From the IMG/VR virus record IMGVR_UViG_2563366947_000002: a DNA stretch of 64,000 bases; one strand, written 5' to 3'. Below are positions 31,377 to 53,789 of this stretch, in pieces. Position 1 is the stretch's first letter, and every line of letters begins with the position of its first letter. Under the pieces are notes generated by a model. That model was not told the origin of the DNA, made no database searches, and saw only the letters and a list, made by a program, of their open reading frames with translations. The DNA comes from a virus (lineage: Duplodnaviria > Heunggongvirae > Uroviricota > Caudoviricetes). A program made the position numbers and the translations under genes.

Positions 31377-31679
31377 ATGACCAAAAAAATTAACATAAAG
31401 GATTTCAGGGATGCGTGGCTTGATGATTTTTTTGAATTTTCAACACCACATAGAAAGATACCTCCTGATATTCATATGACATTGTCACGGAAGTTGGACA
31501 TTATCAATGCCGCAACTACCTGTAAGGATTTAAGATCACCACCAGGCAATCGGTATGAGGAACTGTCAGGGAAGCTAAATGGCTATTCATCAGTAAGGGT
31601 GAATAAGCAATATAGGTTAATTTTTAAGTGGGTTAACGGAAAGGCCGAGGACTTGTATCTCGACCCTCACAAATACTAA
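31377..31679 (+). CDS. higB: RelE/HigB-family toxin
   Basis: 100 aa; C-terminal YRLIFKWVNGKAEDLYLDPHKY resembles the HigB family; GGAGG RBS; followed by an HTH gene. Confidence 0.65.
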   Translation: MTKKINIKDFRDAWLDDFFEFSTPHRKIPPDIHMTLSRKLDIINAATTCKDLRSPPGNRYEELSGKLNGYSSVRVNKQYRLIFKWVNGKAEDLYLDPHKY

Positions 31680-31749
31680 AACAGATACCCGGTTACGGAC
31701 CGGGTTCTGACCAGAGTCCACTTAATACGCACGCTAGTAAGGGCAAAAA

Positions 31750-32088
31750 ATGAAACAGGCAACCAGAAAACCGACGACCGTAGGTGATATCCTGCTGTAC
31801 GAATACCTGGAGCCATTAGAGCTGAAGATCAACGAGTTAGCAGAAATACTTCATGTTCATCGTAACACCGTAAGTGCTCTTGTTAATAATAATCGTAAGC
31901 TAACGATGGATATGGCATATCGCCTGGCAAAAGCATTCGATACTTCTGTAGATTTTTGGATTAATCTTCAGACCGCAGTAGATCTGTGGGAAGTCGAAAA
32001 TGATATGCGCGTTCAGGAAGAGTTAAGTCGTATCAATACTGCTGAAAAATTTATTTCTCAGCGTAACCTGAATAAAAAAGCAGCCTGA
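31750..32088 (+). CDS. higA: HigA-type HTH antitoxin
   Basis: 112 aa; XRE-type HTH (INELAEILHVHRNTVSALVNN) and FWINLQ motif typical of HigA. Confidence 0.65.
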   Translation: MKQATRKPTTVGDILLYEYLEPLELKINELAEILHVHRNTVSALVNNNRKLTMDMAYRLAKAFDTSVDFWINLQTAVDLWEVENDMRVQEELSRINTAEKFISQRNLNKKAA

Positions 32089-32144
32089 TATAGTAAAACA
32101 CATACAAAAAGCCCACTTAGCAAGTGGGCTTTCCTTTGTAATTA

Positions 32145-32504
32145 ATGAACATTAAACCTATCCGTACAGAACAAGATTATGAGGCCGCACTGCGTGCGGT
32201 CGAACCGATGTTCGATAACGAACCGGAAATGAATACTCCGGAAGGTGATTTCTTTGAGGTTATGAGTCTTCTCATTGAGGAGTACGAGAAGAAACATTAC
32301 CCAATTGAGCCACCATCACCTATTGAGGCCATTAAATTCCGTATGGAACAGCAAGGGCTGACCGTGAAGGATCTGGAACCGGCAATTGGTAAGTCAAACC
32401 GTGTTTACGAAGTGCTTAATGGGACACGAAATTTGACGTTACCTATGATTCGTCGTTTACATGCCCAGTTTGGTATTCCACTGGAAAGTCTGGTTGGTGT
32501 TTAA
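32145..32504 (+). CDS. second HigA-family HTH protein (C-terminal HTH type)
   Basis: 119 aa; C-terminal IGKSNRVYEVLNGTRNLTLPMIRRLHAQFGIPLESL matches the E. coli HigA architecture. Confidence 0.55.
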   Translation: MNIKPIRTEQDYEAALRAVEPMFDNEPEMNTPEGDFFEVMSLLIEEYEKKHYPIEPPSPIEAIKFRMEQQGLTVKDLEPAIGKSNRVYEVLNGTRNLTLPMIRRLHAQFGIPLESLVGV

Positions 32505-32554
32505 GTTTGGCGGTCTGGAGGACCGCTTTTTATCTAAAATAAAAATTAGAAGGT

Positions 32555-33304
32555 TTGATAGCTTGTATGGGCAAAAATTCATCAACAGAAAACACATCTA
32601 CAATTGACTCAATCAAGGGCACAATGGATGAAGCCATAAAAGATAAATTATTTAATAAATTATTTGCATATGTGGTGGTTTCATTTTTTGTCGTTAATTG
32701 GCAAGAAATACTAATTTTGTTTAAATCTAAATATGATATATACACAACACTGTCTATAGTATGGGTAGGGGATAAATATCAAATCCCTTATTTTGGAACC
32801 TTCATTGTATCTCCGTTTTTAGCTCACTTTGTTATGCCGTTTATATATGGCACTATTGCGTCCATAGTAATGCCTTATATTACTATGCGTATATCAAAAC
32901 TAACTGGTAGAAATTATGCGCAAATAAGATACATTGACCATGAATTTGACTCAGAAGAGAAAGCAAGAGTAAAGGCGTTACTGAGAAACCTAAAGAAAAA
33001 AGAGGAAGAGCTTTTAAAATTAGAGGAACAAATAGAAGGTCAACAAAAAATACTGAATACAATCGAAGAAAAGAAGAGAGAGATTGAGAGTGCCAGAGTG
33101 GCTCTGTATCACGGTATAAAAGTAATTGTTGATATATATAAAGCAAAAGATAAAAGGATTTCCACCAAAGAAGATTTTGCCGATTTATTAAAAGCAATTG
33201 AAGGAAGTGATTTTTATAAAGACACTGGGTTGTGGGGTATTAATAATTTAATAGATGACGTGGAGACAATATATGAGTCTCAATCGACATCAAAGGACAA
33301 GTAA
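32555..33304 (+). CDS. membrane protein with two TM helices and a C-terminal coiled coil
   Basis: 249-aa ORF in a visibly AT-rich tract; start ambiguous (TTG 32555 or ATG 32567). Confidence 0.5.
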   Translation: MIACMGKNSSTENTSTIDSIKGTMDEAIKDKLFNKLFAYVVVSFFVVNWQEILILFKSKYDIYTTLSIVWVGDKYQIPYFGTFIVSPFLAHFVMPFIYGTIASIVMPYITMRISKLTGRNYAQIRYIDHEFDSEEKARVKALLRNLKKKEEELLKLEEQIEGQQKILNTIEEKKREIESARVALYHGIKVIVDIYKAKDKRISTKEDFADLLKAIEGSDFYKDTGLWGINNLIDDVETIYESQSTSKDK

Positions 33305-36106: not shown

Positions 36107-36730
36107 ATGAAGGATGGTGTAGTGAAGTTAAGGGTTTTAGGGGCCGCGCTCGCGGCTATGTTGGGATGCGTATCTGTTAATACTGCCAATGCAACTGCGT
36201 TACCTGCACAATTCAGGGCAGGGCAGCAGGTTATGAATAACGCTGGTGGGGATCATTCACAAGCGGCAATTATGGACTTTTGCAAGAGGGAGGGCATTCC
36301 ATTACGGCCTGTTGGAACTCAGTTTATTGGTAAAACTGACTTTTGCGTTTTTGCATATACAGCATATCTGACGGACAAAGCTATAACAAAAACAGGTTAT
36401 TCAACCAAAGATACTCTTTCCAGATTAAGTCAGGGATGGCAGCAATTCGAAGTGTATCGCCAGCAAGGATTAGGTGAGTTATTGCAACCACTTTTTATGC
36501 TTGCGTTGGTGCCAGAGGGGCAGCAATTTTTGGTTAAAAAGGGAATGCTTCGCCAAAGTGATATTGCCGGGTTCGATAGCATGATGGCTTATGAGCGCAA
36601 ACTAACCGAGCAGCGAAATAAAAAACCATCTGCTTCATGTGTGCAAAGTAAAACAGCAGAATACAGTGCAGTAGCCGGGCCTTTAGCCAAACAAATGGCA
36701 GAGCAATGGTGTAAAAAATACGGGCAATAA
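36107..36730 (+). CDS. secreted protein (signal peptide)
   Basis: N-terminal LGAALAAMLGCVSVNTANA then a soluble domain. Confidence 0.45.
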   Translation: MKDGVVKLRVLGAALAAMLGCVSVNTANATALPAQFRAGQQVMNNAGGDHSQAAIMDFCKREGIPLRPVGTQFIGKTDFCVFAYTAYLTDKAITKTGYSTKDTLSRLSQGWQQFEVYRQQGLGELLQPLFMLALVPEGQQFLVKKGMLRQSDIAGFDSMMAYERKLTEQRNKKPSASCVQSKTAEYSAVAGPLAKQMAEQWCKKYGQ

Positions 36731-36750: not shown

Positions 36751-37143
36751 TTGAAAAGATTGGCTATTGCTTTACTGGCGTCTTTCCCTTTGATCGCGAG
36801 CGCCGGAAATTTACAAGTTAAGTGCGGTCGGTTTGATATAAAAATCTATCCAGATGCCATATTTCTGAATGGGAATAAGGTTGATAACGCACACCGAAAA
36901 ACTGAATCTGACGTAATGAGCTATGTGTTCCAGGAGTATGCGGAGATGGGGGGAACTTACACGCTGTACTCGCTGGATGTTCCTTCTCGCGGTGATATGA
37001 CATTATCCCATCAATGGCAGAACGCCGATGGCGAAGCTCTGCGCGAGGTTAAAACAGAAAAATGTGGCACTTTCCATTCTTTTAAAGGGAAAGCGCCAAA
37101 TGTTAAATCTGTGCTTGAAAAACAGCGCGCAGGTGATTTTTAA
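36751..37143 (+). CDS. secreted protein (signal peptide)
   Basis: N-terminal MKRLAIALLASFPLIASA signal peptide; 130 aa. Confidence 0.45.
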   Translation: MKRLAIALLASFPLIASAGNLQVKCGRFDIKIYPDAIFLNGNKVDNAHRKTESDVMSYVFQEYAEMGGTYTLYSLDVPSRGDMTLSHQWQNADGEALREVKTEKCGTFHSFKGKAPNVKSVLEKQRAGDF

Positions 37144-37231
37144 ACTGCGTTAGAACTTTGAACATGGCGACAACACATCTTGGTGGCTGCGTTGTCGCTG
37201 TATGCTTTTATAATATAAAGCATTAAAGTTT

Positions 37232-37849
37232 TCATTTTTGTCGGATCTTTTCCAGCATATTTAATTCATTATCACTTTCTGCTGCTGAGACGGTTGGCCT
37301 CACATTTCCGAAATATTTCCTGTGAGACTCATGACTTATGTATTCACCGACAGTTTCATTCTTGAATATACGAATTTGACATATGCGAGATCCAACAATA
37401 AGTTCTACAGGGCTATTCCCATGATTAAATAACTCTAAAGATATACAGCCTCTGTACCCTGGTTGTATCATGGTATTTAATGAAAGACCAAGCCTTGTAT
37501 AGCTGCTTCTGGACAATACATCAGCGTAGCAATCTGGTGGCAAACAAACATATTCTAATGTTGTTGCCAGTACCACTTGATTCGGGTAAACAATGAATCT
37601 ATCCCCAAGATCTCTCCTTGTTTCCTGGAAAAATGTTCTGATTGGTTGATGAGTATCATTGTTTTTAGAGGGAATTAACTCTATTGACGGCTTCCTTGTC
37701 ATAATAGACACTAAAAAATCGTAACCAAGTCTAAGGTCTATGGTGAAGTTCCCAATTTGGTTTTTATTTAGAAGAGGTTCAATGAACAACGACTCAGGTT
37801 CTTCTGATTCATAATATTGCAGCAATTCAGCTTTGCTTAGGAGATTCAT
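37232..37849 (-). CDS. dCTP deaminase (Dcd) family protein, dUTPase fold
   Basis: Aligns with E. coli Dcd (SRSSYTRLGLSL vs GRSSLARLGLMV; PGYRGCISLELFNHG vs PGWSGCIVLEFYNSG). ATG at 37849 overlaps the upstream stop (ATGA), GGAG RBS. Confidence 0.7.
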   Translation of the reverse strand: MNLLSKAELLQYYESEEPESLFIEPLLNKNQIGNFTIDLRLGYDFLVSIMTRKPSIELIPSKNNDTHQPIRTFFQETRRDLGDRFIVYPNQVVLATTLEYVCLPPDCYADVLSRSSYTRLGLSLNTMIQPGYRGCISLELFNHGNSPVELIVGSRICQIRIFKNETVGEYISHESHRKYFGNVRPTVSAAESDNELNMLEKIRQK

Positions 37850-38919
37850 TGTGCACTCCATTTTTCAAGAATCATTACGTTTCGAATCGATTTTTCAACC
37901 AAATCATTTATAGTTTTTTCTATGGCTTCTTTTGACAACCCAGACCATATACCCGTAGGTTTTTCCCATTCAGAGCATAAGTACTGCCAGCTGCTGTTAA
38001 TAAAAGCATGCATTTCATTGTGGTCGCGAATAACAAAAGGACGCACATTATCAAAAGCTGATTTCACATCAAGCAAAGGTGTCGGCAATGTCAAACAAGG
38101 AGAAATAATCTGCCCACCCTTATGTAAGGCTGATATCACAGCATTGAACATGCCAACAACTGGATTTTCCACTTTGTTCAAAAAGTCGCTTACAATTTTA
38201 ACTCTATCTTCTGTGGATGGGTGAGTATAGCTTGCAGGATGAGAGCCAGCTAATTTGTATAAGAAATCTACCCCACTTTTTCCAATAAATTGGGCACTAA
38301 ATAGATCTGCAAAATATTCTCTGCAATGATTTATCCAAATAACATCAGGTAGATTACTCCATTCTGGTCCAGGAAGTGTGCCTTTGTCCTTGGAACGATA
38401 GTTAAGACAGGCAAGCTCAGAAATACCTTTGCTAATATCAACGAAATGTCCCAATTCGTGATATAAAGGTATAGAGCATAATGGTCGTCTTCTGTACATT
38501 TCAGGTAATGAAATCTGGATTAATTCGACCTCGAATTTGACATTTAAAACTTCATCAAATAAAGAATACAAATTCTTGTTTACAGACTTAAAATAAAACC
38601 CATGCATATCTGGAGATAGGGCAGTGGTTATAAGTGTTTTTTCACTTATCCATTTTTTACAGGCATCATTTAAGCAATAAACAATCTCGTAGGGAATTTT
38701 CTTTGTAGTACTGCCAGTGAAAAAATTAACTGCATCGGTGATAAAAAAAGTACAATCCGCAATTATTTTATCAGCAACATTCACATGGTTTTCATAGAGC
38801 TTATCTACCGCTTCTTGTAGAACAGCAAGATATTCATGCATGTCTTTAGAAAAATAGGGAGATTCTGATATCTCCCTTAGCTTATTTCGAACTAATGTAA
38901 GTTGTGTAAATGCAAGCAT
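37846..38919 (-). CDS. HExxH zinc-metallopeptidase-like protein (ImmA/IrrE-like?)
   Basis: 357 aa; HELGH motif then EYFADLF; start overlaps the upstream stop (TAATG). Confidence 0.55.
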   Translation of the reverse strand: MLAFTQLTLVRNKLREISESPYFSKDMHEYLAVLQEAVDKLYENHVNVADKIIADCTFFITDAVNFFTGSTTKKIPYEIVYCLNDACKKWISEKTLITTALSPDMHGFYFKSVNKNLYSLFDEVLNVKFEVELIQISLPEMYRRRPLCSIPLYHELGHFVDISKGISELACLNYRSKDKGTLPGPEWSNLPDVIWINHCREYFADLFSAQFIGKSGVDFLYKLAGSHPASYTHPSTEDRVKIVSDFLNKVENPVVGMFNAVISALHKGGQIISPCLTLPTPLLDVKSAFDNVRPFVIRDHNEMHAFINSSWQYLCSEWEKPTGIWSGLSKEAIEKTINDLVEKSIRNVMILEKWSAQ

Positions 38920-39224
38920 TAAATGTACTCTAATACATTCCGGGCCATTACGGGTTCTAACATATCTTCGCTAGTTACTTTGGTTAGCACCTGGGCGAGC
39001 GCCTTAGTGTGGCGTATCTCTACCGCGAGCGAGATGGACTCTCTGTGAGAAGGAATCTGTAATTGATCACCTTTATCTACACTTAAGTTTGAGGCTTCTC
39101 TGATCACCTCATAAACCCGTAACTTTAACTGCTGTGACACTTCTTGTTGAGATGCTATAAGCTGAAGTACAGTCTTGATTAACTTCAAAGAATCAGAAGC
39201 TTGCTGAGGAACCGCATAGAGCAT
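38919..39224 (-). CDS. small helical protein, first gene of the three-gene operon
   Basis: 101 aa; strong AAGGAGG RBS 6 nt upstream. Confidence 0.5.
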   Translation of the reverse strand: MLYAVPQQASDSLKLIKTVLQLIASQQEVSQQLKLRVYEVIREASNLSVDKGDQLQIPSHRESISLAVEIRHTKALAQVLTKVTSEDMLEPVMARNVLEYI

Positions 39225-39360
39225 AACCCCTCCTTTTCCCTTATCTATAACCGCTTTCTTTTTTCTGTGGATGTTAAAAGTAGAAGCGGTTTTTACCTTT
39301 TATAATATATATAGTGTCTAAAACTAATTTTGGCACTATATATGGCATGATATCTATGTT

Positions 39361-39406
39361 TTAAAGACACAAAAGCTCTGTTAAAACAGAGCTTTTGTGT
39401 CTTTAA
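39361..39406. repeat. perfect 20-bp inverted repeat (TTAAAGACACAAAAGCTCTG / CAGAGCTTTTGTGTCTTTAA) around a 6-nt centre
   Basis: Read directly; lies between the 95-aa gene stop and the operon promoter. Confidence 0.7.
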
Positions 39407-39550
39407 CTTGATCATTTTCTCGCTGAAGTGTATGTCAGGCTTAGCTCATAATCAAGTTGCTTCCAAGCTAAAAATGAGCTATTTCACTGAAACACCAAGA
39501 GCGGGATGTTTCATTTATTTGCGTTGGGCCTGACGGGGTGCAGATGAGTT

Positions 39551-39838
39551 TTAGCTCATCACACTATAACGACGGGGAACGGAATTCTCCATCAGGTCAC
39601 GAATTACTCCCGCTTCATGTAGTTCCTCTGTCTCCCAGTATCTGTTTGTCACCAGATCGAGGCTGGCTATGACCTTGTGCCGGTCATTCGGCATAGCCAA
39701 TTTTTCTGCTATAACCATCAGTGAAAACTCTTCATCCAGTAGAATTTGATACCAGACTTTTGACAGTTCCAACTCTCTAATGAGGGTGAAGCGCCGCTCA
39801 AGTGTGGCGGCAGAATAAGTGAAATCTATTTTTTTCAT
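39551..39838 (-). CDS. hypothetical protein
   Basis: 95-aa ORF downstream of the Rha-like gene. Confidence 0.4.
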   Translation of the reverse strand: MKKIDFTYSAATLERRFTLIRELELSKVWYQILLDEEFSLMVIAEKLAMPNDRHKVIASLDLVTNRYWETEELHEAGVIRDLMENSVPRRYSVMS

Positions 39839-53294: not shown

Positions 53295-53789
53295 TTATAA
53301 CTTTTCGTACTGAAGCGGTGAACGCTTAATTTCAAAGTGGCCTTCCGATGTGCTACCAAAGCCACCATCACCACGTTCCGTTTCGTTGAGTTCCTCAACC
53401 TCGACTAGTGAGACTTGTTCAACACGCTCAAAAATTCCTTGCATGACAGCCATTCCAGGCTTGAGACAAACGCCTTCCCCGCCGGGATCAGTAATCAGTT
53501 TTGCCATGATTTCGCCGCGATAATCGGAGTCGATAATTCCTACGCAGTTAGCCAGGCGAGTATGTTTTTTGCAGCCCAATCCGGATCGCGGATAGAGTTT
53601 CAGACACCAGCCGGGCGGGATCTCCATAGCCAATCCGGTGTACACCCACCAGCTTGAGGAAATTGCACCATTGCTATCGACACATGGTTTTATTTCAACA
53701 GCCTCAAAATCCATCGCCGCCGATCCGGAGGTGGCATAAGCTGGAAGTTTTGCTGCCGGATGTAGGCGTTTCACTTTTACGTAAATCAT
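53295..53789 (-). CDS. dut: dUTPase
   Basis: Classic dUTPase motifs GIIDSDYRGEI and RGDGGFGSTS. Confidence 0.8.
   Translation of the reverse strand: MIYVKVKRLHPAAKLPAYATSGSAAMDFEAVEIKPCVDSNGAISSSWWVYTGLAMEIPPGWCLKLYPRSGLGCKKHTRLANCVGIIDSDYRGEIMAKLITDPGGEGVCLKPGMAVMQGIFERVEQVSLVEVEELNETERGDGGFGSTSEGHFEIKRSPLQYEKL

Follow-up and report, generated by a model that had tools for sequence, protein, structure and literature searches.

A mobile three-gene cassette on a P1-like phage-plasmid, coupling a metallopeptidase to a Dcd-family protein, is a probable anti-phage system

What is a Dcd-family protein doing on a phage-plasmid, in one operon with a peptidase and a small helical protein? We addressed this question for three minus-strand genes in IMG/VR virus record IMGVR_UViG_2563366947_000002 (Caudoviricetes), from which a stretch of 64,000 nucleotides, here called the window, was analyzed. 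The genes are gene A (38919..39224, 101 amino acids [aa]), gene B (37846..38919, 357 aa) and gene C (37232..37849, 205 aa), and together they are referred to as the cassette. An initial annotation, made from the letters alone, had put them forward as a candidate defense or abortive-infection module. This proposal gained support from conserved synteny, from a distribution outside phages, and from contexts in defense islands and on mobile elements. Because the gene order is kept in two phyla, usually among immune genes, we concluded that the cassette is probably an undescribed anti-phage system acting on the pool of DNA building blocks. The interpretation that we favor, with somewhat better than even confidence, is a self-contained conflict system of three genes that is mobile and most likely serves anti-phage defense or abortive infection, with a toxin-antitoxin (TA)-like logic and the Dcd protein as its effector.

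The three genes were inherited strictly together. A scan of GTDB, using one genome per species, returned 50 peptidase loci, and a same-strand DCD gene abutted the peptidase gene in 48 of them; of the two exceptions, one was cut off by the end of its contig and the other was the most distant hit. Six phylogenetically spread homologues (Dickeya, Proteus, Aeromonas, Methylophilus, Rhizobium and Geobacter) all had the order small protein, peptidase, DCD. Every proteobacterial locus for which upstream sequence was available had a homologous small open reading frame (ORF) ahead of the peptidase, and in Bacteroidota the peptidase was preceded by an ORF of ~100 aa bearing the same N-terminal signature. 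The order of the trio was kept across both phyla, Proteobacteria and Bacteroidota, and the co-occurrence expected of a module was thereby borne out. We also found a natural peptidase-Dcd fusion of 631 aa (P0213, L063:2050-3945) with a 101-aa ORF directly upstream; it came from two metagenomic contigs. Among plasmids, the records with Dcd hits of at least 41% identity were essentially the same as those that hold the peptidase.

The components were not conserved equally. Per locus, identity to the window proteins was highest for Dcd (41–82%), lower for the peptidase (26–67%) and lowest for the small protein (33% or less, or undetectable), a gradient in the sequences that fits what might be expected of an effector, a transducer and a sensor, respectively. 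The peptidase belongs to a rare family, with 312 clusters at E ≤ 1e-10 in a set of 1.84 billion representatives. Most copies of the cassette were chromosomal, beside defense genes, and some were on rhizobial megaplasmids or integrative islands.

In the window, the reading frames are tightly joined. A TAATG overlap at 38917-38921 links genes A and B, an ATGA overlap at 37846-37849 links genes B and C, and a Shine-Dalgarno sequence, AAGGAGG (39229..39235, minus strand), stands 4 nt before the first ATG of gene A. All three elements of the translational coupling described in the initial annotation were confirmed by reading the sequence. The start of gene C was placed at the ATG at 37849 (MNLLSK), as in RefSeq; all homologues begin with MNLLSK or MHLLNK, and the mechanical ORF (37232-37861) is 209 aa long.

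The source element of the window is a P1-like phage-plasmid. Plasmid pIDPH8234-1 of E. coli O111:H8 was 100% identical to the window over the cassette. Five sister plasmids of ~90–96 kb were ~99.5–100% identical to the window, and two more carriers were 95.6–98.8% identical. Annotated backbone genes included those for a tail tape measure, a baseplate protein, a maturation control protein, Ref, an Icd-like protein, Rha, RdgC and HigBA. When a carrier (L001) was compared with a non-carrier (L002) by blastn, homology stopped at window position 37145 and restarted at 39573. The accessory insert between these points (37146..39572, 2,427 bp) holds the whole cassette with its own regulatory region, stands in place of 40 bp of the cassette-free sister plasmids, and was found in 8 of 74 related E. 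coli records. The tract had been described as AT-rich against the flanking phage genes, and a GC sliding-window analysis agreed: at 37.3% GC, versus 46.7% for the window, it was the lowest-GC 2.4-kb stretch among 616 sliding windows (mean 46.6%, standard deviation 2.7%). The cassette is a discrete, horizontally mobile insert. Linkage to integrases was low, with a P4-type integrase within 10 kb in 4 of 55 cassette loci.

Could the insert nonetheless be a nucleotide-metabolism moron, whose Dcd feeds dUTP to the phage-plasmid's dUTPase and raises dUMP and dTTP? The initial annotation had offered this as its alternative. The phage-plasmid does encode a trimeric dUTPase (dut, 53295-53789, minus strand) as a backbone gene, and ordinary Dcd genes were present in 239 phage genomes. 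However, the peptidase had no match in 50,697 phage genomes. The phage Dcds were at most ~35% identical to gene C in full-length matches (one partial match reached 40%), and sequence identity places them as ordinary family members in a different clade, the cassette-type clade being absent from phages. The defense proposal passed this comparison with lytic-phage nucleotide clusters, and a role as a lytic-phage nucleotide-metabolism gene was ruled out by the absence of the peptidase from phages together with the distinct Dcd clade. The dut gene was found in 102 E. coli plasmids versus 8 for the cassette; because the two do not covary, the suggested partnership with the dUTPase was rejected. Moreover, E. 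coli already has dcd, and metabolism offers no rationale for tying such a gene obligatorily to a peptidase and a small protein. We regard the moron explanation as extremely improbable. If the cassette makes dUTP, the phage-plasmid dUTPase could in principle protect the element's own replication.

We then considered what each protein is likely to do, starting with gene C. The protein matched Pfam PF22769 (DCD) with an E value of 1.3e-30 and 107 bits (cut-off 27), and it matched TIGR02274 with 113.3 bits, above the equivalog cut-off of 92.8. DCD and dUTPase were its only Pfam matches, and the Dcd fold spans all 205 aa. Alignments were taken against the Dcds of E. coli, M. tuberculosis and other solved structures. 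Over the full length, R114-S115-S116, R119 and E139 of gene C correspond to R110-S111-S112, R115 and E138 of the E. coli enzyme. These residues were invariant or nearly so among 54 cassette Dcds, and S115, R119 and E139 were invariant both in these 54 and in a 26-sequence set. The assignment to Dcd in the initial annotation, including its catalytic Ser, Arg and Glu, was correct on all these grounds. Judged by the family matches, gene C is a Dcd-family (dUTPase-fold) deaminase-like protein.

One active-site position departs from the family. Q129 (in 'IQPGY', codon 37463-37465) is invariant in the cassette clade and replaces the motif-III Asp (D128 of E. coli, in 'IDPGW'), which is conserved throughout the dUTPase superfamily and was found at this position in all solved Dcd and Dcd-Dut structures (B. 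halodurans, M. tuberculosis, E. coli). The role of this Asp in trimeric dUTPases and in the bifunctional Dcd-Dut enzymes is in triphosphate hydrolysis. Because it is replaced by Gln, gene C is predicted not to hydrolyze dUTP. We infer from the residue pattern a deaminase that either would leave its dUTP product intact or would recognize the sugar differently. A TRR motif at residues 77-79 is likewise specific to the clade, and gene C carries a C-terminal extension of ~17 residues that is amphipathic. The chromosomal dcd of E. coli, located at udk-dcd-asmA, is 34.5% identical to gene C. One E. coli plasmid hit (H81), tried as a cassette-type Dcd, was just this chromosomal region and was discarded. 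Separately, PDB entries 9ln0, 9ln3 and 8y1w (155-156 aa, deposited as 'dCTP deaminase') matched the C-terminal half of gene C only.

Gene B has the motifs of a zincin metallopeptidase. HELGH was found at residues 154-158 and EYFADLF at 201-207, 43 residues on, confirming the pair of motifs originally reported for the 357-aa protein. The invariant motifs of the family were PYE (76-78), HELGHxxD (154-161), ExFAD (201-205), HP..R (233-239) and NDLxEKSIRN (338-347), and residues H154, E155, H158, E201, D205, H233, P234 and R239 were invariant in 45 sequences. We take the combination of HExxH, ExxAD and HP..R to be the M48 pattern, and we used it as a lead. Pfam M48 (PF01435) scored 16.1 bits on the window protein, below the gathering cut-off of 20.3. 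Weak matches to M48 were seen in 8 of 45 family members (best E value 1.1e-4) and to ATLF in 6 of 45; NCBIfam and Pfam gave nothing above threshold on gene B. The initial annotation had likened the protein to ImmA/IrrE-type (M78) peptidases. This likeness did not hold, as neither the window protein nor the 45 family members had a Pfam match to M78 (PF06114), and the window holds no helix-turn-helix (HTH) or M78 partner gene.

The AlphaFold2 model of gene B was of high confidence (predicted local distance difference test [pLDDT] 92.8), and the protein has no transmembrane segments. Foldseek of the model against the PDB gave no significant match, and phmmer and profile searches against PDB sequences gave nothing; the model has candidate M48 structural neighbors, though none was significant in the PDB by Foldseek. 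From its motifs and its model, gene B is best described as a soluble, distantly M48-like gluzincin with novel helical N- and C-terminal domains.

HExxH proteases can be abortive-infection effectors, as with Lit. This precedent raises an alternative in which gene B is a Lit-like toxic effector acting on a host or phage protein, and the Dcd-fold protein senses nucleotides, phage-made modified dCTPs for instance, rather than depleting the pool. The change from Asp to Gln and the TRR motif would agree with it, since they give gene C a nucleotide pocket unlike that of the housekeeping Dcd. But the deaminase Ser, Arg and Glu are invariant in two phyla, which would be unexpected for a pure sensor, and among the three proteins conservation is highest in Dcd, as is typical of effectors. 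On account of these two observations, a peptidase effector is less likely than a Dcd effector, and we consider it improbable.

Gene A was the fastest-evolving component of the cassette. Its AlphaFold2 model is a bundle of five to six helices (pLDDT 83.7) in which residues 1-9 are the sole low-confidence part (pLDDT 47). These first residues belong to the most conserved segment of the family, the N-terminus, which reads MLAA, MLYA or MLYSH (MLYAVPQ in the window). Because the tail is conserved yet flexible in the model, it may be a docking or cleavage element. No informative fold or domain match was found for gene A, NCBIfam and Pfam gave nothing above threshold, and it showed no consistent DNA-binding domain and no recognizable HTH. 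A role as sensor, inhibitor or substrate is proposed.

Depletion of nucleotide pools is an established antiviral strategy in bacteria and in humans (SAMHD1, dCTP deaminase, dGTPase). In the mechanism that we propose for the cassette, gene A would keep the deaminase, or else the peptidase, in check. On a cue from infection, gene B would cleave gene A or the C-terminal extension of the Dcd protein, and the deaminase would be turned on. Once released, gene C would convert dCTP to dUTP, starving DNA replication of dCTP. With Gln at motif III, gene C would probably lack dUTP hydrolysis, and free dUTP could poison DNA. A more specific version of this scheme, which we consider possible but rather unlikely, is a peptidase-gated Dcd that serves as a pure dUTP generator, combining uracil poisoning with dCTP starvation, and that in many bacteria is maybe an output or partner of the Bub (bacterial ubiquitination-like) pathways.

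The region 5' of gene A contains several candidate control elements, all given here on the minus strand. A perfect hairpin of 21 bp (39361..39406; RNA fold -31.1 kcal/mol, z -9.5) could serve as an insulating terminator or as a structure in the leader. Closer to the gene, a 10-bp inverted repeat, ATATATAGTG-N17-CACTATATAT (39307..39343), overlaps a -10-like TATAGT (39335-39340), and the promoter scan gave TTAAAA-18-TATAGT at this repeat, which could be either an operator or another hairpin of the leader. Upstream of the hairpin, the promoter scan also gave a TTGACA-like box (39411..39438; CTGACA in the window) as a candidate alternative -35, at which GCTTGACATACACT is conserved in Dickeya and Proteus. 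The 5' region including the hairpin was conserved in the Dickeya, Proteus and Aeromonas cassettes, with compensatory changes at 12 pairs, in a comparison of four sequences that cannot separate RNA structure from a DNA operator. In the same comparison, both arms of the inverted repeat were conserved, and a paired AU-to-GC change was seen in 2 of the 4 genera. At the other end of the operon, the 3' untranslated end (37150..37231, minus strand) has two stem-loops and is terminator-like (RNA fold -24.2 kcal/mol, z -4.65). A scan of the cassette region against Rfam gave nothing near gathering scores.

This arrangement bears on a further alternative, namely that the cassette is a three-part addiction or stabilization module, with Dcd as toxin, the small protein as labile antitoxin and the peptidase as dedicated protease, serving maintenance of the element and not defense. 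The layout is what such a module would have: the first gene is small, translation is coupled, and a palindrome that could allow autoregulation lies over a -10-like box. The cassette is also carried by a low-copy phage-plasmid that already has HigBA, and other copies are on rhizobial megaplasmids and integrative islands. Nevertheless, most copies are not plasmid-borne and lie in chromosomes beside defense genes, the cassette is present in only 8 of 74 sister plasmids, and the small protein lacks a consistent DNA-binding domain. We therefore rate pure element maintenance as unlikely, and many TA systems are themselves defense systems, in which respect this alternative overlaps with the conflict system that we favor.

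The insert has left a trace in its surroundings. An ORF of 95 aa upstream of the cassette (39551-39838, minus strand) had its last ~7 codons altered by the insertion; its homologue in cassette-free plasmids, annotated 'transcriptional regulator', is 103 aa long and overlaps the 130-aa gene. The insert is bordered by two ORFs, at 36107-36730 (plus strand, 207 aa) and 36751-37143 (plus strand, 130 aa), that have signal-peptide-like N-termini and no Pfam match, and both are kept in sister plasmids with or without the cassette. Elsewhere in the window, a second low-GC patch (31377-33304, 32-38% GC), possibly a further accessory or moron region of the phage-plasmid, encodes HigB and HigA together with an additional HTH protein and a 249-aa ORF that had no Pfam match.

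The company that the cassette keeps in other genomes points to immunity, in an assessment of defense neighbors that was qualitative. QatABCD adjoined the Proteus cassette inside an integrase/AlpA island, and the Dickeya cassette was in an integrase island with a RosmerTA-like pair. The Rhizobium phaseoli cassette adjoined a type I restriction-modification (RM) system and an integrase, and the Methylophilus cassette adjoined a Bub operon, an M78 pair and Rhs toxins. AbiE, DUF4238 and a caspase-nSTAND-WD40 protein adjoined alphaproteobacterial cassettes. PADLOC, run on 145 neighbor proteins, returned RmrA, CapP, RM and MADS models.

Two kinds of neighbor recurred. CapH/CapP- or RmrA-like pairs of an XRE-HTH and an M78 protein, recognized by Pfam and PADLOC, adjoined the cassette in 12 of 55 loci (among them L043:11597-12830, L052:11673-12983, L053, L055, L061, L050, L038, L010:5645-6546, L013:8625-9544 and L003:9779-10906). 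Such pairs were often placed between the cassette and a Bub operon. In 23 of 55 loci (42%), a ThiF-type E1 gene was located within ~5 kb of the cassette, in varying orientation and in four classes of two phyla (Alpha-, Beta- and Deltaproteobacteria and Bacteroidota). The E1 was often fused to JAB or DUF6791/E2 and was accompanied by DUF6527 (BubE) and sometimes by Multi_ubiq. The Bub-adjacent loci were L010, L012, L013, L016, L026-L027, L030-L035, L037, L038, L043, L046, L048, L050-L053, L055 and L061 (for example, L026:7760-9606 and L052:13419-15550). In Rhizobiales the genes bubCD, bubE, A, B and C were contiguous on one strand, with gaps of ~70 nt. In published work, Bub operons are rare, are associated with CapH/CapP in 31% of cases, and belong to pathways with no known target or phenotype.

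These neighbors raise the alternative that the cassette is a non-autonomous accessory or effector arm of Bub, regulated by CapH/CapP on DNA damage. Bub genes near the cassette in 23 of 55 loci, in variable arrangements and two phyla, the co-directional rhizobial operons, and the CapH/CapP pairs between Bub and the cassette all argue for it, as does the lack of a known target or phenotype for Bub pathways. Against it, the window contains no Bub, M78 or HTH partner gene near the cassette, and the gammaproteobacterial copies examined had no Bub or CapP gene nearby. Because these copies lack Bub and carry their own conserved promoter region, gene content indicates that the cassette can stand alone. 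Independent systems are also commonly co-located in defense islands. We find dependence on Bub quite unlikely. Repeated co-location of the two is still a testable lead on the targets and role of Bub.

A different pairing was seen on Rhizobium phaseoli plasmid pRetR611c and ten similar plasmids (L065:3243-10480). There, another Dcd-like gene (32% identical) is co-directional with two hypothetical genes, an S8 serine peptidase and a trypsin-like peptidase, and a Fic gene adjoins. This row may be a second Dcd-plus-protease arrangement.

Several points weigh against a conflict system of the kind proposed. The inhibitor role of the small protein and the activator role of the peptidase are guesses. 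A PADLOC scan of the three cassette proteins gave no meaningful match, and it is the context that carries the defense assignment. Some loci, such as that of Aeromonas, sit among ordinary chromosomal genes. Lastly, the change from Asp to Gln could alter the substrate specificity of gene C or abolish its activity. We nonetheless favor the self-contained anti-phage system on the strength of its conserved gene order and immune neighborhoods. If it is correct, the housekeeping-type trimeric Dcd fold appears to have been recruited independently, by convergence, for nucleotide-pool immunity, and proteolytic control would be a mode of activation so far undescribed among systems that deplete nucleotides. 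The cassette also illustrates how P1-like phage-plasmids shuttle immune cassettes between Enterobacteriaceae. Being compact (2.4 kb) and naturally resident on an E. coli phage-plasmid, it is easily cloned, and HExxH, the catalytic Glu, the Gln/Asp position and the conserved N-terminal tail offer mutational handles.

How does the cassette compare with known systems? The initial annotation had not recognized the set as a described system, and we agree: no PADLOC model matched, and no paper describing the cassette was found in the open-access literature. The dUTPase system of DefensePredictor (Science 2026) likewise contains a domain of the dUTPase superfamily, and its defensive role is predicted rather than validated. 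It comprises a MazG-C kinase, a dUTPase and an aGPT-pyrophosphorylase, without a peptidase, a small protein or a Dcd-type deaminase; as its gene set is different, it was rejected as a description of the cassette.

Individual proteins have closer parallels. Gene C resembles the housekeeping Dcd (E. coli, PDB 1XS1) and the Dcd-Dut enzymes (M. jannaschii, M. tuberculosis), with RSS..RLG, the catalytic Glu and the C-terminal lid aligning over the full length. It differs from housekeeping Dcd in its ~30-35% identity, its Gln for Asp, its TRR motif and its C-terminal extension. Unlike a core gene, moreover, it is accessory and mobile, and genes for a peptidase and a small protein always accompany it. 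Gene B, when set against M48 peptidases (HtpX, Ste24, BepA and the soluble 'minigluzincin' type), falls below the gathering threshold and has no transmembrane segments. It has instead large helical N- and C-terminal domains with the unique invariant NDLxEKSIRN, for which no PDB relative was found. In layout, the cassette is like CapH/CapP, ImmR/ImmA and RosmerTA (RmrA), in which a zinc peptidase and a small partner stand beside a toxic effector. However, the peptidases of those systems are M78 (PF06114) enzymes that act on an HTH repressor, whereas gene B has no M78 match and gene A has no HTH.

In its proposed outcome, the cassette is closest to the dCTP deaminases of defense. The enzyme described by Tal et al. 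has 576 aa and combines a kinase domain with a zinc cytidine deaminase (CDA) fold, and it made dCTP deamination a proven defense mechanism. Like the dCTPdeaminase of Tal et al. and AvcD (AvcID), the cassette is proposed to deaminate deoxycytidine nucleotides upon infection and to starve phage DNA synthesis. Those enzymes are held inactive until infection and are found in mobile islands, and the same is proposed for the cassette. The folds are unrelated, and architecture and control differ as well. The Tal et al. and AvcD proteins have a zinc CDA-fold domain together with a kinase or P-loop domain, and gene C has neither. Whereas an RNA antitoxin or a kinase domain in the same molecule restrains them, the cassette would place this control in its peptidase and small protein.

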